64,000 nt of DNA from a virus, in IMG/VR virus record IMGVR_UViG_3300042389_001739, positions 15,723 through 79,722 of that record; one strand, given 5' to 3'. Shown here one piece after another: positions 10,294 through 64,000 of the stretch. The position numbers were made by a program, and so were the translations under genes. Numbering within the stretch: the first letter of the stretch is position 1; each line of letters opens with the position of its first letter. Below the pieces are notes generated by a model, which had not been told where the DNA came from, searched no databases, and worked only from the letters and a program-made list of their open reading frames with translations.

Positions 10294-10644
10294 AACTTCA
10301 ACCTTCTCAGCCGCAGCTAACAGGTTTCCAAACCGGGCAACAAAAATCTCGACATCATCCAGCTCAAGGGTTACCAGCCAGTTTCGCCGGTTTTTGCGGT
10401 GAAACACGACCGGGATTTCACCTTCCTTGGCGTCGCGCTTGGCCTGTAGCACTGCGGTATCAATATTGAGCTTTTCCACGCGCTTGCACTCTACGTGCAC
10501 GCCCGGTAAGCCCACAACATCGTCACCTTCGATGCCGTTATACTGCTGCCCTCTGCGGGCATTGACGTTAAAAAGCCTGCGAAACTCGGCAGCCAGCTCG
10601 CGTTCGCCGACCTTACCTTTTCGATTACCGTTAATCCGTGCCAT
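10291..10644 (-). CDS. Holliday junction resolvase, PD-(D/E)XK (Hjc-like)
   Basis: KGKVGERELA, GDDV, HVECKR, PVVFHR motifs, 117 aa. Confidence 0.85.
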   Translation of the reverse strand: MARINGNRKGKVGERELAAEFRRLFNVNARRGQQYNGIEGDDVVGLPGVHVECKRVEKLNIDTAVLQAKRDAKEGEIPVVFHRKNRRNWLVTLELDDVEIFVARFGNLLAAAEKVEV

Positions 10645-10653
10645 GTTGATTCC

Positions 10654-11553
10654 TTAAATCAAACGTTGTTTCCGCCTCGGGTGGTGTGATTGTACGGAAG
10701 TTTCCAAGTTTACACCAGGCAATAGCTCAGGATCGAGTGCTTTTACCGGTTCCGTTGCGCTCGCTTGCGTTGTGCCTGCAATTTTTAACGGGTCAGTACA
10801 CTGCAAAAGCTTATGATATTCAGCCATTACCCAGTGCAAACACAGCGAGTCATAACCGGCATTATGCATACTGTTGACATCCACATTATGCTGCTTGATC
10901 AGGTCATAGTGCTCCAGTATGTACTTCAAACCCCACTTGACGCCGCTGATCCTTAACTGGCAAACACGCTGAAAATAGGCTTTAAGCGTCTCGTTACGCT
11001 GCGGCAAGATTGACGAGCGGTAGGAGGCCAGCCGGGACTCGCGTGAATTCCAGATTTGATCTGCTTTGAAAATGGCGCCGGTGTCGAAATAATTGTCTTT
11101 CGGTAAATCGAAAGTTTTACGAAGGAACCTTGCAAAATTACCGCGAATTAAACGCTCGTCAGCCGCTTGACCGTTTTGTGCCACAAAGGGCAAATTACGT
11201 TGACGCCAGGTATCAAACAATGTGCTGTAGAACTTCAGTACGTGAACAGGGTCTTGACCTTCGGACTGCAACACGTGCGGTAATAACCGCCAGCTTGGTC
11301 CTACGATCGCGCGCATATTGTTTAACTTATAGTCTAACCAGTGGGACTGAACCTGCGGATGCTTGTACCAGTTAAGCACCAGATTTAAACGATCCACCAC
11401 AACTCCGTCTTCCACCAGTGTGTGGCCGATCTCAACAATCAAATCGTTACCAGCGTCGCTACCGGTAAATTCTGTATCGAAACAAAGGTAAGAAGGCGGA
11501 AATTGATGACCATACTGGGCTGTAAAGCTACGCTGCCATGCGCTGATGATCAT
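10654..11553 (-). CDS. DEDDh 3'-5' exonuclease (DnaQ-like)
   Basis: ExoI FDTEFTG, ExoII AQNGQAAD, ExoIII HNAGYD. Confidence 0.85.
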   Translation of the reverse strand: MIISAWQRSFTAQYGHQFPPSYLCFDTEFTGSDAGNDLIVEIGHTLVEDGVVVDRLNLVLNWYKHPQVQSHWLDYKLNNMRAIVGPSWRLLPHVLQSEGQDPVHVLKFYSTLFDTWRQRNLPFVAQNGQAADERLIRGNFARFLRKTFDLPKDNYFDTGAIFKADQIWNSRESRLASYRSSILPQRNETLKAYFQRVCQLRISGVKWGLKYILEHYDLIKQHNVDVNSMHNAGYDSLCLHWVMAEYHKLLQCTDPLKIAGTTQASATEPVKALDPELLPGVNLETSVQSHHPRRKQRLI

Positions 11554-11569
11554 ACAATTTCCCTGAATT

Positions 11570-12112
11570 TTAGCCTCGTAAAGTGCGCAACGCAGTGCGG
11601 AACTTTGACTTCAACCGCTCAAACCGGCGTCGGCGTCGTGACATACCAGCGTACCGCCGAAATTGCTCGGCGTAAACCAGCAACTGCTCAACAGTCAACA
11701 AAGGACCTTCACCGTTGACGGTGGCTTCGCGCACCCCGGCATACTGGATTCCGGCATAACACGCGCCAATGTGGGCCAGAACAGCCACCTGAGCTGCTGG
11801 TTTGCAATCCAGAAATCCCGATTTACGTAAGCTATCGAACAGGGTGATTTGTAGTTCGGTTGCAGCGGAAGCCAGGTAACGACAATATGCCCCACAAGCC
11901 TCACCCAGCTCGTCCATCGTAATACGTTCTCGTTCCAGGATGCTATCCAATTCTGGCCAGGTATGATCTTCTAATCGACCCGCCACGATTTCCATCACTT
12001 GTTGAAAGTTATGTGCGACATCCCGCGAAGGATTATACAGCCGATTATCACCGGCGCTCATGCGTGCCTGCATCGTCATAGTTTCTTTAGCTCCATTGTG
12101 CACCGTAGACAT
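11570..12112 (-). CDS. Hypothetical protein
   Basis: 180 aa, basic C-terminus; true start may be the ATG near 12079. Confidence 0.7.
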   Translation of the reverse strand: MSTVHNGAKETMTMQARMSAGDNRLYNPSRDVAHNFQQVMEIVAGRLEDHTWPELDSILERERITMDELGEACGAYCRYLASAATELQITLFDSLRKSGFLDCKPAAQVAVLAHIGACYAGIQYAGVREATVNGEGPLLTVEQLLVYAEQFRRYAGMSRRRRRFERLKSKFRTALRTLRG

Positions 12113-15249: not shown

Positions 15250-15810
15250 TCACAACCGCCAGGCCAGCCCTGTCTGGATGTGGTCGATGAGCGCGGTGTA
15301 CGGCTGCACAACCAGCTGCATCGCATGCTTTTTACCACCCTTATGTACATGGCAACTGGACTGCGGCGGCACAAACATTTCCCAGTTACCGTTATGGATC
15401 ACCATCCCCTGTGCGAACCCTCGCCGCGGAAAAATCATTGCCAGCGGACGATCCGGGTACCGCTTGTACAGCTCTTCAAACCGAGATTCATAGCGCTGCA
15501 CTAGCGGCAAGCTGCGAAAGGTTTTAAACCAGAGCGGATGAATTGACCGCTGATCCTTATGAATCGGCGGTTCATCCGTCATGGCATCAGCAAACAGGTA
15601 AACCGGAAAAGTATTCACCACAGTATTGAAAGCTTCACAGGTGAAGTGGTCCGTAGTCGACAATTTCCTGATTTCCTGCTTGCAAGCCATGGACAGTTTC
15701 AGACGATTGGCTGTCCACTCAATACGAGCCGATTCCCACTGGCTGACCCGCCGTTCGGCCTGCTCGTAACGTGTAATTTTACTCAGTAATGGATGAAATG
15801 GATGATCCAT
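15250..15810 (-). CDS. Hypothetical protein
   Basis: 186 aa, starts 1 nt after the recA stop. Confidence 0.75.
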   Translation of the reverse strand: MDHPFHPLLSKITRYEQAERRVSQWESARIEWTANRLKLSMACKQEIRKLSTTDHFTCEAFNTVVNTFPVYLFADAMTDEPPIHKDQRSIHPLWFKTFRSLPLVQRYESRFEELYKRYPDRPLAMIFPRRGFAQGMVIHNGNWEMFVPPQSSCHVHKGGKKHAMQLVVQPYTALIDHIQTGLAWRL

Positions 15811-23260: not shown

Positions 23261-24349
23261 TTATCTCCTTTGTGCCGAAACTTGTACATTTTGCTCACGT
23301 GCCTGCTGCATAATGCACTGCCAGATGTGTGATCTTAACGACTCGCCTGGGTCACAATCACCTGGCAGCTGCACAATGCAAAATCCGGAATTTAAATCTG
23401 CGTTAAGCCTGGCGGCAATTTCTTTGAGGTTTTCTCCTTTTTGCGCATTATTGGGTTTGGCAAAGATATCCGGATCGTAAATCAACACCCCGGAATACTC
23501 GTTGAAATTTTGTTTGAACAAAGCTTGTTGTTGTGGTGTAAACGAAGCGCCCAAGGTGCAAACCGCTTGCGGACCCACTCGCCACACGTCTGTTACGCCT
23601 TCAACGATTACACCGGTTCTGTACTGCCGAGCCTTGCCCAGATTGTACAAAAGCTGACGCCTCGGCGTACCAGGGGCTGTGTAATATTTCGGTTCGTTGG
23701 AAACTTTCCAGTCGATGTCGTAAGGCGGACGTGTCTGCCACCCTACCATTTTTTTCTGGCGGTAAATCGGGATGACCATACGGTCTGCACAAAACGGTCG
23801 GGAACTTTCATGGCACCAGTGCACATTATAAAACCGCCCAATTTGTTCGGGATCAAACTGGCGGCTTTCTAAATAAACTCGTGCCTTATGATCTGCCGGT
23901 AAACGATCCAGGCGAGTTACCTTGCCCGGCCAGTTCATCCGGATTGAATCCACATCGATAGTCTTACCCGGTTGAATAACAGCCTTGTTGAGTTGAACAA
24001 GACTGTGTCCGCACAGCCATTCGTACAGCTGTTCATACGATTTGGAATCTTTGAGGTTGAGGGGACACCCGGCGTTGAAGCAGGTGGCCAGAAATTTCTG
24101 TGGTCGGCCGAATTCGTCGTCCGTACCGTAACGGTGGTTAATGTAGCAACGGTTACGCGTATCGTTGCAGAAGGGACAACAAACCGCATAATACTCACCA
24201 GGGTGAGTGATCACGGGCACACGCCGCCCAGTAGCGATATCCAGCTGAAGTTTACGCTGCTGGTTTTCTCCTTCGTTCCGAATTTTAACGTGCTTGAACG
24301 TAGTGACGCACCGTCTGTACAGCAGAGAATTTAACGCCTTATTATTCAT
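23261..24349 (-). CDS. dnaG: DNA primase (Zn finger + TOPRIM)
   Basis: CPFCND zinc finger, YLESR, RMVIP, PKYY, VEGVTD, YDPD. Confidence 0.9.
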   Translation of the reverse strand: MNNKALNSLLYRRCVTTFKHVKIRNEGENQQRKLQLDIATGRRVPVITHPGEYYAVCCPFCNDTRNRCYINHRYGTDDEFGRPQKFLATCFNAGCPLNLKDSKSYEQLYEWLCGHSLVQLNKAVIQPGKTIDVDSIRMNWPGKVTRLDRLPADHKARVYLESRQFDPEQIGRFYNVHWCHESSRPFCADRMVIPIYRQKKMVGWQTRPPYDIDWKVSNEPKYYTAPGTPRRQLLYNLGKARQYRTGVIVEGVTDVWRVGPQAVCTLGASFTPQQQALFKQNFNEYSGVLIYDPDIFAKPNNAQKGENLKEIAARLNADLNSGFCIVQLPGDCDPGESLRSHIWQCIMQQAREQNVQVSAQRR

Positions 24350-26003
24350 GGAATTCTAGTTCTTCATCCGAATCCTCATCAAACATACCGGTTTGATTAA
24401 CATTTACTGCGATATTGGGCACTGCAGCGCCGACCAAGTTTGCGGTGGCTTTATCCACAATATTTCCACGGCTATCGATGTGGTAATTATCGGGGGATAA
24501 TACCAAGTTAAACTCACCGTCCACTTTGATAATCGTAGGCGGCAATCGGCGATAGCGACGATGCTTGGTACACATAATCTGGCCCAAGCCTTCCAGGTTT
24601 AAGTTACCAACCACAAACGCAAAGCTAAGATTTTCAGCAAATGACTTGCTACCTTTCGCGTCGGTGTGATGGAGTTTGGCCGTCACGCTTTGTTGTGAAT
24701 TGGCTTCACCGCTTAACTGATGCATCAGCCAGGCGTGACAGTTAAACGGTTTACAAATTTGTTTGACACACAGCTCGCCTGCCTGCTGGTAGGACCGATG
24801 TGTTTCCATGGGATTTTTTGTATTTTTAAGTTTTGAGTCGTTATCGATCATCAGGCCCAAGTAATCGATAATTACGTTCTTGATATAGTACTCCGGACCC
24901 CGTTGCTGTAGTTCTTGTTTAATCCGCTGGACGATCTCGGCCACGCCGCCGTTACCCGCCGTGGGATGTAGCGGATCGGCCCCAGAAAAATCCAAACAAA
25001 GTGTATGCGCGTTGACCCAGTGCTCGATTTCCGCGACTCGTACCCGTTCGGGTTTAAAAACCCCGTCACGAATTTCTGTGGTAAACAACCGCTGCTCGTA
25101 ACTCAGCGGATCGTTTTCGTTATTGTTCAGGGCATCAATCCCGTCTAATCCCATTCGCTCCAGGCTGTAACGACTAACTCGCGAAGAATACATGACCAAC
25201 CGGTGTAGAATTTCTGGTGCCAGTGGTGCCTCGTACGTAACCAGTACGGACAACCCTTTGCGCTGATCCCAGTCCTCTGCCAGTGTGTCTTCGTAACATT
25301 GCTGTGCCGCAGTGGCCCAAAGCATTACCGCTACGGTAGTTTTACAGGTACCGTAAGGTGCCATGAAGCCGTAAGCCTCACCGGCTACCGTACCTCCACC
25401 CAAATAATTGTCCAGAAAACCCAATCCCGTGGAGCGAATCAGCATGGGATTGGTACGAGACCAATCCGGTTTCATCGTCAACGTTGGTCCGGTTTTCTCC
25501 TGCAGCAGGCCGACCAGATCCAACTTAACCTGATGTTGCTGCAACAGAAATGGCAAGTCGTCCAGCGAGGTCTGACGAATATTCTGTTCAAGTGCCTGCC
25601 GCTCATGCTGCAGCATCAGCATGCGACCGACTTTTAGCCCAAACCGATGCATTTTTTGGCCGGTTGCCGGTGACGTAGCAAACAGCTCGGGGTCATAAGC
25701 ATATTCAAAGAAGTCTTCCAGCTCTGCCCGATCCTCTACAGGAATCAGTTCAGGGTCGTCTTCAAAATAACTGGCGATTTCCGTCCAGAGTTCAGGCTGT
25801 GCCGGTATGCTCTGATTCTCTTCGTACAAATTAATCAGTGCACGGAACAGCAATCGATTACTGTCCGTAGTGAAATGTTCAACTGTCAATTTTCCCCAGT
25901 ATTCCTGGAAAAGTGCTTCATTGTGAAGCAGGATTGCCAGAAATAAACGTAAATGGGCAGTTGACAGTCTGGTTGCCGACTGTCTCATACTAATTCCTTT
26001 CAC
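24342..26003 (-). CDS. dnaB: DnaB-like (SF4) replicative helicase
   Basis: STGLGFLD..LGGG, Walker A APYGTCKTT, VTYE, IIDYLG, HQLS, KHR; adjacent to the primase. Confidence 0.88.
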   Translation of the reverse strand: MKGISMRQSATRLSTAHLRLFLAILLHNEALFQEYWGKLTVEHFTTDSNRLLFRALINLYEENQSIPAQPELWTEIASYFEDDPELIPVEDRAELEDFFEYAYDPELFATSPATGQKMHRFGLKVGRMLMLQHERQALEQNIRQTSLDDLPFLLQQHQVKLDLVGLLQEKTGPTLTMKPDWSRTNPMLIRSTGLGFLDNYLGGGTVAGEAYGFMAPYGTCKTTVAVMLWATAAQQCYEDTLAEDWDQRKGLSVLVTYEAPLAPEILHRLVMYSSRVSRYSLERMGLDGIDALNNNENDPLSYEQRLFTTEIRDGVFKPERVRVAEIEHWVNAHTLCLDFSGADPLHPTAGNGGVAEIVQRIKQELQQRGPEYYIKNVIIDYLGLMIDNDSKLKNTKNPMETHRSYQQAGELCVKQICKPFNCHAWLMHQLSGEANSQQSVTAKLHHTDAKGSKSFAENLSFAFVVGNLNLEGLGQIMCTKHRRYRRLPPTIIKVDGEFNLVLSPDNYHIDSRGNIVDKATANLVGAAVPNIAVNVNQTGMFDEDSDEELEFHE

Positions 26004-26785
26004 ACGCCACTTACTGCAAGGATGGACTCCTCGAGAAGTCTGTTCGCCGCCGCACGAAACCCTGGTGGAATAACGCTACCCCAGGCCTCGTCATAGAGAT
26101 CCGGAAATAGTGTGTAATCCATCGCCGCCAGGAACTTGTACCGCTCGCCAAGCTTTTCCAGCTTGGCGCAGTGCAAATCGTTTTTGTCGGTTGCCTGAAT
26201 TTTCTCGCTTGTCGATATTGCCAGGCAATAGCGAAAAAGCGGTGATAACTCCAGTCGGTCATCCGCAATGGCGTAATATACCGACAAAGAGAGCGTATGA
26301 CCAGCCCCCTTTTGCAGCCGCACAACCGCCGAGCGCGCACGCTGGCTTTCGGCGATGTACTGCTGCCGCAATTCAGTTTTGCTCGCATTTACATGCTCAC
26401 GCACCAGATCGAACCAGACCGAACTGGCTAACTGTTGCACCGTGGGTACGGTTAAAGCGGAACCGCGCAAAACTCGAAACAGCAGCCGCAGGTAATACGC
26501 AGGCGCAATGGATTGCGCGCTTTGAATCTTGGCGTAAGCTTTGATCCAGGCGTTCTGCCGTTCCGGTTCTTCTGGCGTGTTAAATTGCTTTAATCCATCG
26601 AAATTGGGCGAAGGCGTGTAATGAGATACCCCGCCATGGCGAAACTGCTCTAAAACTCGCCTTTCTAAAATGTAGGTGTTTTTAAACCCTTGAATTTCCG
26701 GCGTCAGTTGGTGTGATCCGCGCAGCGATCGTTGGCCGGGCTTGGAATAAAGTCCCGGGATCGGTTGGCGTCTGAAGTTTCGCAT
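26000..26785 (-). CDS. Hypothetical protein in the replication operon
   Basis: 261 aa, coupled to the helicase gene. Confidence 0.75.
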   Translation of the reverse strand: MRNFRRQPIPGLYSKPGQRSLRGSHQLTPEIQGFKNTYILERRVLEQFRHGGVSHYTPSPNFDGLKQFNTPEEPERQNAWIKAYAKIQSAQSIAPAYYLRLLFRVLRGSALTVPTVQQLASSVWFDLVREHVNASKTELRQQYIAESQRARSAVVRLQKGAGHTLSLSVYYAIADDRLELSPLFRYCLAISTSEKIQATDKNDLHCAKLEKLGERYKFLAAMDYTLFPDLYDEAWGSVIPPGFRAAANRLLEESILAVSGV

Positions 26786-26792
26786 AAGTCCC

Positions 26793-28289
26793 TCACATCA
26801 ATTGACTATCCAGTGCGGTTGTCGGCGGCTTGATCTGCTCAAACCCCATGGCAACATAAGTCGATTCACGACCTTTTGCCTGACTGGCCATTTTTGGATT
26901 GAATTGATCCCGATAGTCATGGACGATGCCGTATTCTTTCCCTTCCGCCACGCGAGAAACCCGGCCAGGAATTTGGATATCACCAATAACGCTTGAACCT
27001 CCGGCGGCCCTGATCAACACAGTCAGTTGGTTAAAACTGACACCCACATTCCAAACTGTCGTACAGATTACTTTTTTCAATCTACCTTTTTCAAAATCTT
27101 GAGTCAGCTGAATTCGCCGATCGACATCCATCAGCGGTTCATCCTGACTGCAACAACCACGATTTACATAGTCTTGACGAGTCTTTGGTGTCAGCCCGCT
27201 TTCCCTATATACAAGTGTAAACTCTGGAAGCCGCTTTTTTAACTGCATTGCGTGCTCCAGCGTATCGACAGTAATCAACACTTGTGTATTTCGATCATAA
27301 AGCCGCGCATCCCGTGCAATCGTGTCGTTACGGAAATCATTACACCAGATACCGTAGCGTTTCTTTTCAATGTCTTCCCGTGACTCGCACGGATCGTAAT
27401 CGCTTCGCACGTTGGACCAGATGACGTGTATGGGTACCACCAACTTGGCCTGCTGTGCCTGTTGATAACTCACCGAAAAAATAATCGGACCAAAGATTCC
27501 GTGCATACGGAGATCTCTGCCGTCAAACCGCTTGTCGTGACTGGCTGACAACCCAAAGTTTCGACTGTTCTGCCACCGTACCAGCTGCGCGGCAGTCCGA
27601 TCGGTAGCCAATTCCTGTATTTCGTCGCCAATCATGATGTCGGCAGTAGCCGGAGAGTGGTGGGCAGAATCTGCCGTGTAACACATCACTCGCCTGTTTA
27701 ATTCTTTTTTAGATCCGCCCACGATTCCAACATCACCTACCATCTGCACTAACTCCGGATAAATCCGATCTCGCAGCACAGACACCCGGCGAGTAATCAC
27801 ATCAATCTTGGCACGCGGAAACAACGAAGCAATCAAGCCGATCATAAAAGATTTGCCAAAACCAGGCGCGCAATCAAAACGGCCGCAGCGATGCGTCAAC
27901 ACTTTCTGCAAAAATTCAGGCTGACCTTCTCGCAGCTGGTAACCTTGAATGTTCTCCCAATGTGGTTCAAATTTTTTAGCGTCCCCTGGCATCTGATCTT
28001 TCAGGCGGACTTCGTAACCATGCTGCCGCAGCTCGTCGCGAATCAGCTTCCAAAAGCCAAACGTAGTCGTCAACCGCTGATGGCGGTCTGCCTCAAATAA
28101 CACATGGTTGATGAACTCGATCGGAGACAAATTCAGCCGTTTTCGCTGTTTGGCTTCATACCCGTAGAAAATCTTCTTTTCTTGAAATGTTAAAACCGGC
28201 TGCAGAATCCGAACTATGCGGTCTGTCGTGGGTTCCAGGCAAAGCATGTTGCCATGCTTCAGCATTGTTACAACAGGCTTTGTGCTCAT
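26793..28289 (-). CDS. Superfamily 2 helicase (UvsW/XPB-like)
   Basis: APGFGKS, GDEIQ, GLSAS, VWNVGV, QIPGRVSR motifs. Confidence 0.88.
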   Translation of the reverse strand: MSTKPVVTMLKHGNMLCLEPTTDRIVRILQPVLTFQEKKIFYGYEAKQRKRLNLSPIEFINHVLFEADRHQRLTTTFGFWKLIRDELRQHGYEVRLKDQMPGDAKKFEPHWENIQGYQLREGQPEFLQKVLTHRCGRFDCAPGFGKSFMIGLIASLFPRAKIDVITRRVSVLRDRIYPELVQMVGDVGIVGGSKKELNRRVMCYTADSAHHSPATADIMIGDEIQELATDRTAAQLVRWQNSRNFGLSASHDKRFDGRDLRMHGIFGPIIFSVSYQQAQQAKLVVPIHVIWSNVRSDYDPCESREDIEKKRYGIWCNDFRNDTIARDARLYDRNTQVLITVDTLEHAMQLKKRLPEFTLVYRESGLTPKTRQDYVNRGCCSQDEPLMDVDRRIQLTQDFEKGRLKKVICTTVWNVGVSFNQLTVLIRAAGGSSVIGDIQIPGRVSRVAEGKEYGIVHDYRDQFNPKMASQAKGRESTYVAMGFEQIKPPTTALDSQLM

Positions 28290-28332
28290 TTTTACCTTCC
28301 AATTGCTTTATTTTAGATGTTGAGTTACAATA

Positions 28333-28399
28333 TGCATCGGTTGAGCGAAACGCCCTACCGCTGCACGATTATACCGTCCAGGTTTCGCCGCCTGGACGG
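28333..28399 (-). other. Two tandem hairpins separated by TATAAT (terminator/leader or small RNA)
   Basis: CCGTCCAGG/CCTGGACGG stem 28374-28399; TATAAT at 28368-28373; second stem TGCA-GCGGT-GGGCG/CGCTC-ACCG-TGCA 28333-28366. Confidence 0.5.
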
Positions 28400-28879
28400 C
28401 TATTCTTTAAATTTTTGACGGCGCAAATGAAATTCAACTACCTGATAATGCCCGTACTGCCCCGGCTGCCAGGGTGATAATCCTTTGTATTTTCCTGCAA
28501 TCTGTAATAACGACCAAAAATCAGCATCGTCAATTTCACTGGGCACAATGCAATTCAGCCCAATGGTTTGCCCGGTTTTAAGTGATTCATGCACACTCCA
28601 CCGTTCTTTACCGTTATTGGTTTTCGGATAATAATGGCGGGCGAAGCAGTTTGGATGCAACTTGGCATCAATCTCGATATCCCAGCAAATTTTTTTAACT
28701 GTTTCCTGATGTCTGCCCAGCATATCCGCAGCAAGCACCATGTTGCTGTAGTGCCACGTAGGTAAAAACAAAATCTTGTTATCCAGGCTGCGCTGAAACG
28801 TATATCGGCCGTTTGGACCTTTTTGATTGCCCAGACTCGGATTTGTAAACTGGATTTTTACCGTCAGCTCACGCATCAT
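28400..28879 (-). CDS. Minimal RAMP-superfamily (Cas7-like) protein
   Basis: beta1 ELTVKIQFTNPSLG, R..NKILFLP.W...M..AA, HESL..GQTI and C-terminal Gly loop AGKYKGLSPWQPGQYGHYQV follow RAMP motif order. Confidence 0.55.
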   Translation of the reverse strand: MMRELTVKIQFTNPSLGNQKGPNGRYTFQRSLDNKILFLPTWHYSNMVLAADMLGRHQETVKKICWDIEIDAKLHPNCFARHYYPKTNNGKERWSVHESLKTGQTIGLNCIVPSEIDDADFWSLLQIAGKYKGLSPWQPGQYGHYQVVEFHLRRQKFKE

Positions 28880-29682
28880 CAGCTCCTGAATAACTCGGCA
28901 TAGCGTTGCCTGACTTTGCGGCTCTGAAAAAACAGCGCCGGATCAAACTGAACGCTCTGGTTGTTCAGTTGTTGTAACCAATTATAGGCCAGAAAATTTA
29001 ATAATTTCCTGCACGCCTGCAGCGCATACCGAGAATTTGGCTTAGACCTGCCAAGCTCTTCCATCAACCAAGTCGTGGGTTCCATCTCCGAAAGAATGTT
29101 CATCAGCAACCGGTTACGTTTATGCTGTCCATCCGTGATGGATTTCAGTTGATTCGGTAAAACTTTGAAATAGCTGTGCAGCCGGTTGACGCGATCCGGC
29201 CGTTCCGGGTTGATATACCAGCGCGGATCACCAATTTCTGCCAGTAACTCAATCCCCAGCTCAATGGAGCGAATTCCACTGAATTTCAGGTAACGATGCA
29301 GACAATGTTGACTGTAAAGTGCATGCAGATTATCGGTATAGCCCTTTGTTTTAAACGTATGTAACAAAAGAAAATGGTTATACACCTGACTGTCCATTCG
29401 ATGCCAACACTGGGGCAAGTTGTCCTGCACCTGCAACAAAGTCAGCCGCTGTAAAATTGCGGCAGGATCGGCTTCGTTCAGCGGTTTACCAACTAATACC
29501 TGGGCCTGAATATCGTGTTGCTTGATGGCTGAATACAGGTCAAGCAACAAACGGTAGTTACAAGGTGTGCCTAACACGCGGTAAATTCCAGGCGAAAACG
29601 ACGACGTAATCGCCCGAGTCAAGCCCTGCGAAGAATAGCTGTAAACTGAATCATTTGCAGCGTGCAGGCAAATTTGCATCAT
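28879..29682 (-). CDS. IS110/Nop-like RNA-binding-domain protein (Tas-like), no DEDD nuclease
   Basis: FSGIRSIELGIELLAEIGDPRWY...LHSYF resembles IS110 Transposase_20 IPGIG..TA..LLAEIGD..RF....LASY; ALQACRKLLNFLAYNW resembles the terminal A.ARKL helix. Confidence 0.55.
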   Translation of the reverse strand: MMQICLHAANDSVYSYSSQGLTRAITSSFSPGIYRVLGTPCNYRLLLDLYSAIKQHDIQAQVLVGKPLNEADPAAILQRLTLLQVQDNLPQCWHRMDSQVYNHFLLLHTFKTKGYTDNLHALYSQHCLHRYLKFSGIRSIELGIELLAEIGDPRWYINPERPDRVNRLHSYFKVLPNQLKSITDGQHKRNRLLMNILSEMEPTTWLMEELGRSKPNSRYALQACRKLLNFLAYNWLQQLNNQSVQFDPALFFQSRKVRQRYAELFRS

Positions 29683-31778
29683 TTGCGGATTTCTATGCTT
29701 TGTTCGAACACCTCTTGAAGATCATGCACATGCGTGATGATCACCATCTGTTGCTGTGTTCCCATTTTACTGGCCAACTGCTGCAACGCGCTATGGAAGT
29801 ATGTCACGTTATCGGCATCCAGGCCACTGGCGGGCTCGTCCAGGAACAGCATGCCGACGTCATGCCCGAACACACGACCTAACGCGGTACGGAAAGCAAC
29901 CGCCAGGATAACCTTCTGTCCACCTGAGAGTTGACTGGCCTTAACGGAGTATTGCCCGGGAAATGTGACCTGGAAAGTCAAATCCTGGTCTGCCTGCACG
30001 GTGAAGGGAGTACCGAACAATTCCAGATTCTCATTAACCCCTTGTACCAACAAGCCAAGATTAGCCTGGGCTACGGCTTTTGGTAAATTGCTCCAGTGAA
30101 ATAAATTACCGGCTTCTTCCACAATTTTAAGCAACTCCTGAGTTTTTCTGTGTTTCTCCAGTCGCTTGCGCAACGTGTGCAAGTTGGCTTCAATACGCTG
30201 TTTTGTCTGCTCCAGTACCCGCAGTGCACCATCCAGCTGGTTAACGGCCGCCACGGCATCGTAATGAAGCTTTAAGCTGGAGGTGGCGCTTTCCAGCTCT
30301 CTTTTTGTCGGTCGCTGTTTAATTTTCTCCTGCTGTTTCTCTAGTTCAACGGTATTGTGCTGCAGGTCACTGGTGGTTTTGGCTTTTGTTTTTTCCAGCT
30401 GTGCAATTTCCGTGTTCACGGTGGCCAGCTCTTGTGTCAACTGCTGACGATTGTTTAGAAATTCTCGGGCTTTTGTGTCGGCACCAGGATCTTCTGCACC
30501 AACCAACACATCCAGCTGCGCCCGTATTTCGTTAATCCCGGCAGTCATACGATTGACTTGCGTGTCGTAAGCCGCCTTTTCTTTGTCGTAGCTTTGCGAA
30601 AATTGCACTCGCTGCTTCAGTGCATCGAACTCCTGCTGGGTGGTTTCAATTTCCTTGAGCAGTTTCTTTCTGTGTTTTTCCGAAATTTCCTGCTGACAAT
30701 ACCGGCAAACCGAATCAGCCAGACTTTCGGGCTCGGCAGCTTCCAGGATAGCGCGTAGTTCGCTTAACCGCTGTGCCGCGGTCTCCCGCTCATCAGCTTT
30801 AAGATAAAGTTGCGAATCCATTGCAGGCGGGAGTAACGACTGAACGCAGTCCATCTTTTTCTGCATACTGTCAGTCAGTTCATTGATCTGGGCCTTGGCT
30901 CTACGGTAAGCCGCCACGGCATTGATCTTGGCATGCGCCAGTTCAACCTTGGGTAAAGTGCGTTCTAGTTGTGCCTGGATCTGCCCGCAACGCCCGTACA
31001 AACTTAACCCGGAAGTTTCAAGCTGATCCGCCTGAGACTTTAACAACTTAACCTTGGTTTGCTGTGCTTCAATCCCCTGCTCGGCGTCGCAGGCGACTTC
31101 TTCACGGCGGACAATCTTTTGTAAATTTACTACCGTATCGGGTGTTAAAATCTGCTTTTTAGACTCTTCTGCCTGCTCGCTTGTTTGCCGTATTTCTGTG
31201 TTAGTCTTTTCCAGGTCGTCGGTTAACTCAAGCGAGTTATCAACGATTTCAACGCCTTTTTGCTTGTTGACGTAATCGTTGCACACTTTATGGATTTGAG
31301 CCGCAATCTCTACACCACACAAATATTGGAACGTCTTCGCTCGTTCACTATCCCGTGCGTCGATAAAGTCAAACATTTTCCACTGGTCGACAAAGACGTA
31401 TTTATCGATTACGGTTTTTGAAATGTTCAGCTCGGCGACAACGGCATCGTTAACGTCGTTTGCCTTTTCATAAGTTTTTCCTCCAATCTTGAACTCGTTG
31501 CGGTTCGGTCTTAACCAGCGTGTGAGTGTAAACTCCTGGTTACGATGTATGCCCGTTAGACGGATATAACTTTCACCGCTCGAGCCGTTGGTGATGATAT
31601 CGGCTTTCGTGCCGCTAAACCGCCCGAAGTCGTTTGTGAGTGCCGCGTAAATACTGTTGACTAGCGTTGACTTACCGGCACCATTCGCGCCCGTCAAACC
31701 AATAAGCCCGCTCGCCAGTTCGACTACGAGTTGTCTATGGGGACCGATATTTTGAAGTTCGACTGTTCTGATTTGCAT
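29679..31778 (-). CDS. sbcC: SbcC/Rad50 (gp46-like) SMC ATPase
   Basis: GANGAGKST, coiled coil with CRYC zinc hook, LSGGQ, FLDEP, ITH. Confidence 0.93.
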   Translation of the reverse strand: MQIRTVELQNIGPHRQLVVELASGLIGLTGANGAGKSTLVNSIYAALTNDFGRFSGTKADIITNGSSGESYIRLTGIHRNQEFTLTRWLRPNRNEFKIGGKTYEKANDVNDAVVAELNISKTVIDKYVFVDQWKMFDFIDARDSERAKTFQYLCGVEIAAQIHKVCNDYVNKQKGVEIVDNSLELTDDLEKTNTEIRQTSEQAEESKKQILTPDTVVNLQKIVRREEVACDAEQGIEAQQTKVKLLKSQADQLETSGLSLYGRCGQIQAQLERTLPKVELAHAKINAVAAYRRAKAQINELTDSMQKKMDCVQSLLPPAMDSQLYLKADERETAAQRLSELRAILEAAEPESLADSVCRYCQQEISEKHRKKLLKEIETTQQEFDALKQRVQFSQSYDKEKAAYDTQVNRMTAGINEIRAQLDVLVGAEDPGADTKAREFLNNRQQLTQELATVNTEIAQLEKTKAKTTSDLQHNTVELEKQQEKIKQRPTKRELESATSSLKLHYDAVAAVNQLDGALRVLEQTKQRIEANLHTLRKRLEKHRKTQELLKIVEEAGNLFHWSNLPKAVAQANLGLLVQGVNENLELFGTPFTVQADQDLTFQVTFPGQYSVKASQLSGGQKVILAVAFRTALGRVFGHDVGMLFLDEPASGLDADNVTYFHSALQQLASKMGTQQQMVIITHVHDLQEVFEQSIEIRK

Positions 31779-32491
31779 TTTTTATACCTTAGAATGACTT
31801 CCCACTCCGCAACAATCGGGCGGGGAAATGAAAAGTTTGTAGGTTTTTTGCCCAGACTGGGATGATACTTTACAGTATCCACCGGAGCATCAATTGGCAC
31901 GATACGCGGATCTTCGATCGATACCATCTGCTGACCCGGCCGTACTATCAATTCGTAGGGCCGATCTTGGTTTTGCTTGGTCCAGCTCGAAATAGCCCGC
32001 CTGGCATCTTCCAGCAACCAACGCGTCGGATGCCCGGTCCAGTTTGTCCAGGTAAACCGACAACCCTGCCGAAGTAACACGCCTTCCCCGCAAATATCGT
32101 CTGGCTCAAAGCTGGGTAGCCGAAACCAGACGAGCTCTGTAGCGTTGGTCAGTGCCGTGTGGGTTACCATGTAAGCGTGATTTTTACTGGGCAGATGCTC
32201 CAGAAAGTGCCACGATAAGTAAACATTGCCGGGCGGTAGCTGTTTAAGCTGGCGTTCATCACTGCAGTCGATAAGTTCAAAGCAGTACCCTTTATCCGTC
32301 ACGATGCGTCGATAATTTTCTGCTTGGGGTCTTTCAACCCCCAGGCAGCGGTGCGGTAACCAAAGATCGTTTGACCGCTCCGGCAAGGTCAGGGCGAGAC
32401 CGCGTTTACGAAACTCGTCGATGGCGTTGCCGTGTTTTGTGCCTAAGTCCACGACGTCATAGGTTACGGTTTTGCGTTTTCCTCTACCCAT
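31724..32491 (-). CDS. Class I SAM-dependent methyltransferase-like protein
   Basis: VVDLGTKHG (motif I), LGVE, WHFLEHL. Confidence 0.5.
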   Translation of the reverse strand: MGRGKRKTVTYDVVDLGTKHGNAIDEFRKRGLALTLPERSNDLWLPHRCLGVERPQAENYRRIVTDKGYCFELIDCSDERQLKQLPPGNVYLSWHFLEHLPSKNHAYMVTHTALTNATELVWFRLPSFEPDDICGEGVLLRQGCRFTWTNWTGHPTRWLLEDARRAISSWTKQNQDRPYELIVRPGQQMVSIEDPRIVPIDAPVDTVKYHPSLGKKPTNFSFPRPIVAEWEVILRYKKCKSEQSNFKISVPIDNS

Positions 32492-63432: not shown

Positions 63433-64000
63433 CTAGCTTTCTACCAAAAAAGTGGCAATCTGGAATTTCGTGCCGGTTTCGTCCCGGTAAATCAGCGAAT
63501 TCCGGTCTTTGGAATAGTATAGTGTGCCATTGGCCGCTTCGCTATCGGCCAGTTGCGTGATCGGTAAGCCATAAACCGCCACGTTAGTTGCCGGTTCGCT
63601 GGTTGTGGTTTCCGGCATAATCAGCGGGGCATAGGGATCATAACCACCCAGGCGCAAAGCGGGCGTAGGGTCAGTAGGGAAGATGCCGGTAGCACCGGGC
63701 GGTCCCGGCGGCCCTGGCGGTCCCGGAGGGCCTTGTGGGCAATCACATACCGCAGGAGGTCCGGCAGGGCCTTGAGGTCCGATTGTACCGTTAGCTCCGG
63801 CAGGTCCCGGTGGTCCTGCGGTACCGTTAGCTCCTGGAGGGCCTGTTAAACCTGTAGGGCCTGTTAAACCTGTAGGGCCTTGAGGTCCGATTGTACCGTT
63901 AGCTCCGGCAGGTCCCGGTGGTCCTGCGGTACCGTTAGCTCCTGGAGGGCCTGTTAAACCTGTAGGGCCTGTTAAACCTGTAGGGCCTTGAGGTCCGATT
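63433..64000 (-). CDS. Collagen-like (Gly-X-Y) virion fibre protein, 5' part beyond window
   Basis: Frame stays open to the right edge: ([36 protein letters not shown])n [16 protein letters not shown](GPP)4GATG, continuing into ORF 63433..63657. Confidence 0.9.
63766..64000. repeat. Perfect 108-bp tandem repeat (>2 units) with a nested 18-bp duplication
   Basis: AGGGCCTTGAGGTCCGATT recurs at 63766, 63874 and 63982. Confidence 0.92.

Follow-up and report, generated by a model that had tools for sequence, protein, structure and literature searches.

The 64,000-nucleotide (nt) stretch of DNA analysed here, hereafter the window, covers positions 15,723 to 79,722 of the virus record IMGVR_UViG_3300042389_001739, a 79.7-kb IMG/VR record judged to be 38% complete. 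On its minus strand it carries two adjacent genes, designated X (267 amino acids, aa) and Y (159 aa), which lie within a replication-recombination operon between the genes coding for an SbcC-like ATPase and an SF2 helicase. According to their predicted folds, X is related to the TIGR-TasR and IS110 proteins and Y to the Cas7-type RAMPs, i.e. to two different families of guide-RNA scaffolds, and both may serve as nuclease-dead accessory factors of the neighbouring DNA-metabolism machinery. Base 28879 is common to the end of X and the start of Y (TGATG), the start of X overlaps the stop codon of sbcC by 4 nt (ATGA at 29679-29682), and 110 nt separate the stop codon of Y from the start of the helicase gene, all of which is as described in the initial annotation of this DNA. 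These 110 nt are the sole gap in the operon. The genes and features of the locus are as follows (ORF, open reading frame).

28879-29682, minus strand: X (267 aa), a compact, apparently catalytically dead TasR-like protein with a RuvC-like fold and a Nop/IS110-type C-terminal domain
28400-28879, minus strand: Y (159 aa), a predicted minimal single-domain RAMP (Cas7/Vipr-like) with a conserved G-rich loop
32464-33648, minus strand: SbcD/Mre11-like phosphoesterase (Pfam Metallophos, PHROG SbcD-like), the first gene of the conserved block
31724-32491, minus strand: a 255-aa ORF between sbcD and sbcC, of no known family
29679-31778, minus strand: SbcC/Rad50-like ATPase of 699 aa (Pfam SMC_N and SbcC_Walker_B; phrog_77, E-value 6e-49)
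26793-28289, minus strand: XPB/UvsW-like SF2 helicase of 498 aa (Pfam Helicase_C, phrog_16)
23261-26785, minus strand: the remaining replication block, consisting of a 261-aa ORF, a DnaB-like helicase and a primase (PHROG DnaB-like, primase)
28326-28412, plus strand: a putative antisense small-RNA gene in the spacer between Y and the helicase gene, with a -10 box, hairpins and a T-rich tail

Relatives of X were gathered with an exhaustive HMMER search, which yielded 308 clusters at the 50% level, 49 of them with E-values <=1e-10 (alignment A3); a word-based search recovered only X itself. No meaningful match was obtained against Pfam, PHROGs or PDB sequence profiles, even when the family members were scanned singly, and X displays no similarity to the Pfam Nop/IS110 models at the level of hidden Markov models. 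The motifs by which X had been noticed (GI..., ELLAEIGDPRW, SYF and A.RKL) are all found in the protein. The AlphaFold2 model of X, built on 97 sequences, has a predicted local distance difference test score (pLDDT) of 93.6 and a predicted template modelling score (pTM) of 0.91. Its best structural match is TIGR-TasR (9mty_B), with a Z-score of 12.0, a root-mean-square deviation (rmsd) of 4.5 and 224 residues aligned over residues 2-265 in VIA, a structure search independent of Foldseek, followed by TasH, which matches the C-terminal domain (residues 101-265) with Z 8.6, and by the IS110 recombinases IS621 and ISCro4 with Z 7.9-8.4 over about 220 residues. Only TasR, IS621 and ISCro4 match X over its whole length, with both domains in the same order, and below the TasR, TasH and IS110 rows the VIA values drop to Z 6 or less. 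Foldseek agrees with VIA, finding 9mty at an E-value of 4e-3 and a probability of 0.99-1.00, and gives Nop5 only as a weak row (3id6, E-value 0.15). The model of X taken from the ESM Atlas itself was poor (pLDDT 0.36), and the search started from it was uninformative.

The N-terminal domain of X is predicted to adopt a RuvC/RNase H-like fold with the order β-β-β-β-α-β; its residues 1-90 match the RuvC domains of RuvX/YqgF, poxvirus resolvase, TnpB and Cas12 (VIA Z 4-6), as well as the N-terminal domain of TasR. Judging by column conservation in 97 family members, the catalytic residues of this nuclease centre have been lost: there is no conserved aspartate or glutamate in residues 1-130, nor is the GL.P motif followed by a conserved serine. 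Conservation is highest at H7, N42, W93, H94, H126 and DPRW152-155. As the two longest helices in the model measure only 16 and 22 residues, the coiled-coil hairpin known from TasR and Nop5 seems to be missing. The initial annotation had called X an IS110/Nop-like protein with no catalytic-serine loop and no N-terminal DEDD RuvC domain. The first point is borne out by the whole-length structural match to TIGR-TasR and IS110 and the second by the conservation analysis, and the third stands as far as the loss of the DEDD residues is concerned but not as far as the domain itself is concerned, since the model has a RuvC/RNase H-like N-domain and X would thus possess the fold without the chemistry rather than lack RuvC altogether.

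Y has viral relatives forming 43 clusters at 44-70% identity (alignment A1). No meaningful Pfam, PHROGs or PDB sequence-profile match was found for it either, and there is no RAMP signal at the sequence level. The AlphaFold2 model based on A1 (pLDDT 93.5, pTM 0.85) consists of one domain, with an RRM/ferredoxin-like core in which a Gly-rich loop precedes the last strand and with a β-hairpin at residues 79-100 that is a possible counterpart of the Cas7 thumb. A Foldseek search of the PDB with this model gave 93 matches at E-values <=1e-3, those listed all being Cas7-type RAMPs (type VII Cas7, Csm3, Cmr4), with type VII Cas7/Csm3 on top (E-value 7e-7). In VIA, the first 33 rows are all CRISPR RAMPs, the best being the Cmr-beta chain 6s6b_I (Z 11.3, rmsd 3.4, 151 residues aligned) and the next a Csm chain (Z 11.1) and a gRAMP domain (Z 10.8), with Cas6 proteins trailing at Z 6-7.7. 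RAMP proteins among the viral predicted structures of BFVD match Y at an E-value of 6e-8, and the ESM Atlas's own model of Y matches the PF03787 cluster with a template modelling score of 0.73. Four independent searches thus link Y to Cas7-type RAMPs, in agreement with the earlier reading of Y as a RAMP ending in a Gly-rich loop. The sequence identity in the structural alignments of X and Y is about 10-14%.

The Gly-rich loop of Y, YKGLSPWQPGQYG, lies near the C-terminus before the last strand, and G129, Y131, G133, L134, S135, W137, P139 and G143 are invariant in this region in A1; the other invariant residues are D67, D71, R93, H97 and E98. These last five, together with H7, H94 and H126 of X, could form a metal or active site. 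No nuclease signatures were detected in either X or Y, as had been noted before.

The gene order around X and Y is conserved. Among 19 IMG/VR loci found through Y, 18 have the arrangement sbcD-(small ORF)-sbcC-X-Y-helicase-(ORF of about 260 aa)-DnaB-primase, and the remaining one (L010) is devoid of X. With a degenerate DNA pattern for the X motif (DPRW...P.R...L....G), 80 more loci were found, 71 of which encode X. Where the locus leaves room for it, an SbcC-like ORF abuts X upstream (53 of 53 loci) and the helicase is located within 3.5 kb downstream of X (30 of 30 loci). Of 52 loci, 42 contain Y and about ten keep X without Y, and L010 (5849-8492) has kept Y with no X between sbcC and Y. 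In four of the Y-less loci (L046, L054, L076 and L079), X leads directly to the helicase, the gap being less than 100 nt in L046, L076 and L079, and some others have a different small ORF after X. L010 and these four loci represent natural "deletion variants". As Y is absent from about a fifth of the X loci, the firm association is that of sbcC-X-...-helicase, with Y being frequent but dispensable. The sbcD-sbcC-X-Y-helicase order was therefore recovered in related phages, and the pairing of X and Y proved to be frequent but not obligatory.

Y is conserved at the level of a core gene, like the SF2 helicase and above DnaB: across 13 loci its identity is 46-66%, compared to 40-69% for the helicase and 26-68% for DnaB. 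X is the least conserved gene of the block (21-43% in the same 13 loci), and the SbcD-like gene shows 27-49% identity in the related loci. X and Y occur in a clade of uncultured freshwater phages with large genomes of about 150-210 kb, and no DNA or protein match to X or Y was found among 50,697 cultured-phage records. The DNA of the window recurs in lake-water metagenomes, all public runs carrying it being lake or freshwater DNA assemblies, with no RNA runs listed among them. Among 185,579 species genomes there are only two relatives of Y, L124 (JBDNHI010000020.1, a Gemmataceae metagenome-assembled genome) and L125 (JBDNFH010000093.1, a Nanopelagicales one), which are 36-45 kb contigs in planctomycete and actinobacterial assemblies, are probably phage and give only a weak hint as to the host.

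No guide array was found at or near X and Y by Tandem Repeats Finder, by a search for direct repeats, with the GGY-NN pattern, with a box C/D stem-loop scan (a simplified re-implementation of the published stem-loop tigRNA rule) or with Rfam; the Rfam and tRNA scans of the whole window were empty. There is no CRISPR array, and no cas families were detected in the X-Y neighbourhood with Pfam and PHROG, consistent with the statement in the initial annotation that cas genes and arrays are lacking. The GGY-NN pattern has zero matches in the window and zero in five related records, and it does detect the genome's own VIPR arrays. The latter belong to a VIPR-like locus in the same genome outside the window (record positions about 10383-12022, L115 2383-4022), where the pattern matches 22 times and two arrays with a 90-nt period, composed of GGY-NN pentamer tracts and a 34-nt hairpin, flank two ORFs, one of 224 aa (L115 3122-3796, minus strand) and, coupled to it, one of 164 aa (L115 2631-3125, minus strand). 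Y shows only a weak G-loop resemblance to the 224-aa Vipr-like protein (hhalign E-value 0.007, probability 5.6%). Five related X-Y records, which are 76-93% complete, contain neither a homologue of this Vipr-like protein nor GGY-NN tracts, so Y does not depend on vrRNAs. The repeat at 63760-64000 was considered as a guide array and rejected, as with its periods of 9, 18, 36 and 108 nt and its 9-nt GGN-CCN substructure, typical of collagen-like genes, it looks like a Gly-X-Y coding repeat; it runs off the end of the window and probably belongs to a fibre protein.

The spacer between Y and the helicase gene contains an element best read, from its sequence features, as a small antisense RNA (sRNA) of about 70 nt. 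On the plus strand, the window and eight loci have the same order of a -10-like box, a 5' hairpin, a short linker, a GC-rich hairpin and a T-run; in the window these include the -10 box TACAAT at 28326-28331 and a terminator hairpin at 28374-28399 followed by a T-rich tail. The GC-rich terminator stem shows compensatory changes in nine out of ten pairs (9 loci), the fold of the window sRNA has an energy of -32.7 kcal/mol (z -4.7), and a terminator scan finds the element terminator-like on the plus strand. A covariance model (R1) detects it downstream of Y, in antisense orientation, in the window and 11 loci at E-values <=1e-3, with one weak match more. The putative transcript is complementary to the 3' end of Y and the leader of the SF2 helicase gene (cis-antisense). 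A large clade with the stop codon of Y abutting the ATG of the helicase gene does not have the element, and for this reason it cannot be an obligatory partner of X and Y. No box C/D-spacer layout was found in it and no exact match of at least 10 nt to the DnaB leader; elsewhere in the window there are a few matching 10-11-mers, counted without a shuffle control. A duplex-energy scan of the sRNA against start regions gave no outlier and odd structures and was discarded. A TATAAT box on the sense strand of the spacer was considered and rejected, as it is not conserved in the relatives.

As to the other genes of the block, the 255-aa ORF between sbcD and sbcC has no match in Pfam, PHROG or PDB sequences; a homologue is found in 7 of 13 related loci, and it may be a third SbcCD-associated protein. 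The nearest solved sequence to the SF2 helicase is that of archaeal XPBII (E-value 4e-5). The 261-aa ORF (26000-26785, minus strand), located directly upstream of the DnaB-like gene and overlapping it, belongs to no family and is kept in all the related loci with 27-63% identity; its role as a helicase loader would be a guess from its position. Further downstream of the 261-aa ORF, the DnaB-like gene and the primase gene, there are genes coding for a 1188-aa DNA polymerase and a UvsX-like recombinase.

From the folds, the loss of the catalytic residues, the absence of an array, the fixed place in the operon and the core-like conservation of Y, we infer that X and Y may have been exapted to bind nucleic acids, in a nuclease-dead form, as accessory factors of the SbcCD/helicase machinery, a reading to which we assign a probability of roughly 45%. 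According to it, exapted relatives of two different guide-RNA scaffold families would have become fixed in a replication-recombination operon, where they would act non-catalytically and not as a programmable effector. The Nop-like domain of X and its dead RuvC cleft would hold structured or branched nucleic acid beside SbcCD, and Y would coat a single strand (RNA, the strand of an RNA-DNA hybrid, or single-stranded DNA), as the protomers of Cas7 and Vipr do, and hand it to the adjacent helicase or take it from there. Any RNA ligand would be a fixed one rather than a guide encoded by an array, for instance the neighbouring antisense sRNA in those clades which possess it. The initial annotation had offered two readings, either that X and Y form one ribonucleoprotein (RNP) directing SbcCD or that they are domesticated replication or transcription factors. 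The latter, taken as replication or recombination factors, is the better-supported half, whereas no test supports the former: X and Y do not always occur together, no RNA resembling a guide was found, X does retain a RuvC-like fold, and a programmable RNP is not supported.

Several points weigh against the accessory-factor reading. Y is missing from about a fifth of the X loci, and the two proteins do not necessarily cooperate. In the X family, the G-h-G hairpin of the helix-hairpin-helix shows no conservation, which makes nucleic-acid binding through this element uncertain, and, as the conserved H7, H94 and H126 of X and D67, D71, R93, H97 and E98 of Y could be active sites, the term "non-catalytic" is not proven. 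The ligand, the contact with SbcCD or the helicase, and the contact between X and Y are all deduced from fold and gene order, and the antisense sRNA beside X and Y leaves room for an RNA-centred function.

Such a function could be that of a fixed-guide RNP regulator, in which X, with or without Y, binds one dedicated phage RNA, which may be the antisense sRNA of the spacer or be transcribed from another place, and uses it as a guide to bind DNA or repress genes. The complex would time the expression of the replication genes or mark a site, for instance an origin, where SbcCD and the helicase are to act. Guide RNAs are held by the characterised relatives of both proteins, RNA-guided repression has been shown for dead TasR and TasA (TIGRFinder preprint, bioRxiv 10.64898/2026.09.09.750476), and the conserved sRNA gene that immediately follows Y in the window and in roughly a dozen loci covaries and looks independently transcribed; yet the large clade with abutting Y and helicase genes has no sRNA, the sRNA itself has neither the box C/D-spacer layout nor an exact match of at least 10 nt to the DnaB leader, and arrays of every kind are lacking near the locus, which leaves this explanation rather doubtful. 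A more far-reaching version, in which X, Y and a fixed phage RNA form a non-programmable RNA-guided complex recruiting SbcCD and the XPB/UvsW-like helicase to one defined site, seems unlikely to us. Its RNA could be the antisense sRNA next to Y, in those loci that have it, or else a transcript of the operon from another place, and the site could be, for example, an R-loop origin or a recombination hotspot. If true, it would amount to an RNA-guided initiator of phage replication or recombination in which a Vipr-like RAMP is combined with a dead TasR.

Solitary Cas-like proteins and RNA decoys are known from phages, and X and Y might likewise mimic subunits of host CRISPR or of the TIGR or VIPR systems of rival phages in order to poison their complexes or soak up guide RNAs; the phage lives among VIPR-armed elements and has a VIPR-like locus itself. 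Such anti-defence decoys are improbable here, as X and Y have a fixed position in a core replication operon, translationally coupled to sbcC, and Y shows core-gene conservation (46-66%) across very divergent phages, whereas anti-defence genes are usually variable, accessory and grouped in early or accessory regions. Quite improbable, too, is that Y is a Cas6-like endoribonuclease cutting the polycistronic operon mRNA at the hairpin after its own stop codon, with X being unrelated. The hairpin forms in the sense transcript as well and covaries, Cas6 is among the fold matches (Z 6-7.7), and D67, D71, R93, H97 and E98 are invariant; however, the Cas7-type matches are clearly higher (Z 9-11), many Y-bearing loci have no spacer at all, and the T-run after the hairpin and the -10 box before it exist only on the antisense strand, which fits the terminator of an antisense sRNA. 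Finally, it is hardly probable that the similarities reflect only distant common folds, RNase H-like with a helical bundle in X and ferredoxin/RRM-like in Y, in structural or protein-binding subunits with no role in nucleic-acid binding. Sequence methods do link X and Y to no family, and the identity in the structural alignments is low, but both domains of X, in the same order, match those of TasR and IS110 with scores clearly higher than those of the following rows, the top 33 VIA rows for Y are all CRISPR RAMPs, the G-rich loop of Y is conserved at the expected place, and the X-like protein A0A3M1VGY1 is part of the structural Nop alignment by which Tas proteins are defined (Faure et al. 2025, Data S1).

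TIGR-Tas and VIPR were described in 2025-2026 as programmable, array-guided phage systems, and relatives of both stand here side by side. These relatives of their scaffolds have no arrays and no nuclease residues and are fixed genes of a replication-recombination operon, which suggests that guide-RNA scaffolds either arose by recruitment of ordinary DNA-metabolism proteins or were themselves recruited into that role; both possibilities are relevant to how RNA-guided systems originated. For the question posed in the TIGRFinder preprint about the function of array-less compact TasR proteins in dense viral genomes, the locus offers a concrete context, namely a place invariably behind sbcC, in most cases together with a RAMP and in some with an antisense sRNA.

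Tas proteins are defined by their Nop domain, which is sometimes accompanied by an active or dead RuvC domain, and in Nop5 the Nop domain is preceded by a dead RuvC-like N-domain (Faure et al. 2025, PMC12045711). A0A3M1VGY1 in the structural Nop alignment of that work carries the motifs of the X family (...DPRWF...YMGLLP...). An entry from metagenome 3300034279 in its Table S1 was considered as X and rejected, being an ordinary TasA instead. In the TIGRFinder preprint, catalytically dead TasR proteins are reported still to bind DNA, and a divergent, array-less clade of compact TasR proteins is described from densely packed viral genomes, the source of their guides being posed as an open question (bioRxiv 10.64898/2026.09.09.750476). 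X fits the description of this clade and may belong to it. Neither PMC12045711 nor the preprint mentions a RAMP partner, SbcC or a helicase. The compact array-less TasR clade is already known from the preprint; the fixed position behind sbcC and the usual coupling to a RAMP gene are not mentioned in these Tas papers.

X shares with TIGR-TasR (TaTasR, 9MTY) the RuvC-like N-domain followed by a Nop-type domain and the viral origin, with PateTasR and CsTasR the inactive RuvC, and with the divergent TasR clade the compact size, the dense viral genome and the lack of a detectable array. It differs from TIGR-TasR in having no TIGR array or box C/D units and no long coiled-coil helices in the model, as well as in being fixed behind sbcC and usually coupled to a RAMP gene. 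Compared to the IS110 recombinases (IS621, 8WT6/8WT9; ISCro4, 9T56), X has a similar RuvC-like and Nop-like architecture, and its motif ...DPRW...L..Y.GL.P resembles the core of Transposase_20; unlike them, it has no DEDD residues, catalytic serine, bridge RNA or element ends and is a single-copy gene in a conserved operon, not a mobile element. With box C/D Nop5 (Nop56/58) it has in common the dead RuvC-like N-domain followed by the Nop domain, although it has no fibrillarin or L7Ae partner and no evident coiled coil.

On the side of Y, the VIPR systems consist of a minimal phage RAMP, Vipr, with GGY/NN repeat RNAs (bioRxiv 10.64898/2026.04.26.720920), and array-less Vipr-like genes in replication modules are not mentioned in that preprint or its follow-up. 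Like Vipr, Y is a small single-RRM phage RAMP with a G-loop, with no second RRM domain and no other cas genes; unlike Vipr, it has no flanking GGY/NN vrRNA arrays and no vap gene, is located in a replication operon and conserved like a core gene, and is carried by related phages which have no VIPR locus. To the Cas7-type subunits (Csm3, Cmr4, type VII Cas7 and gRAMP domains) Y is similar with Z 10-11 and 140-155 residues aligned, as well as in the strand-helix order and the Gly-rich loop before the last strand, but it is about 25-40% shorter and is accompanied by no crRNA (CRISPR RNA), other Cas subunits or array. The catalytic aspartate of Csm3 sits in the loop after strand 1, and in the corresponding loop of Y there is no conserved aspartate. 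Taken together with the comparison for X, the finding is real and unusual, and it is an array-less variant of two recently described kinds of system rather than a categorically new one.

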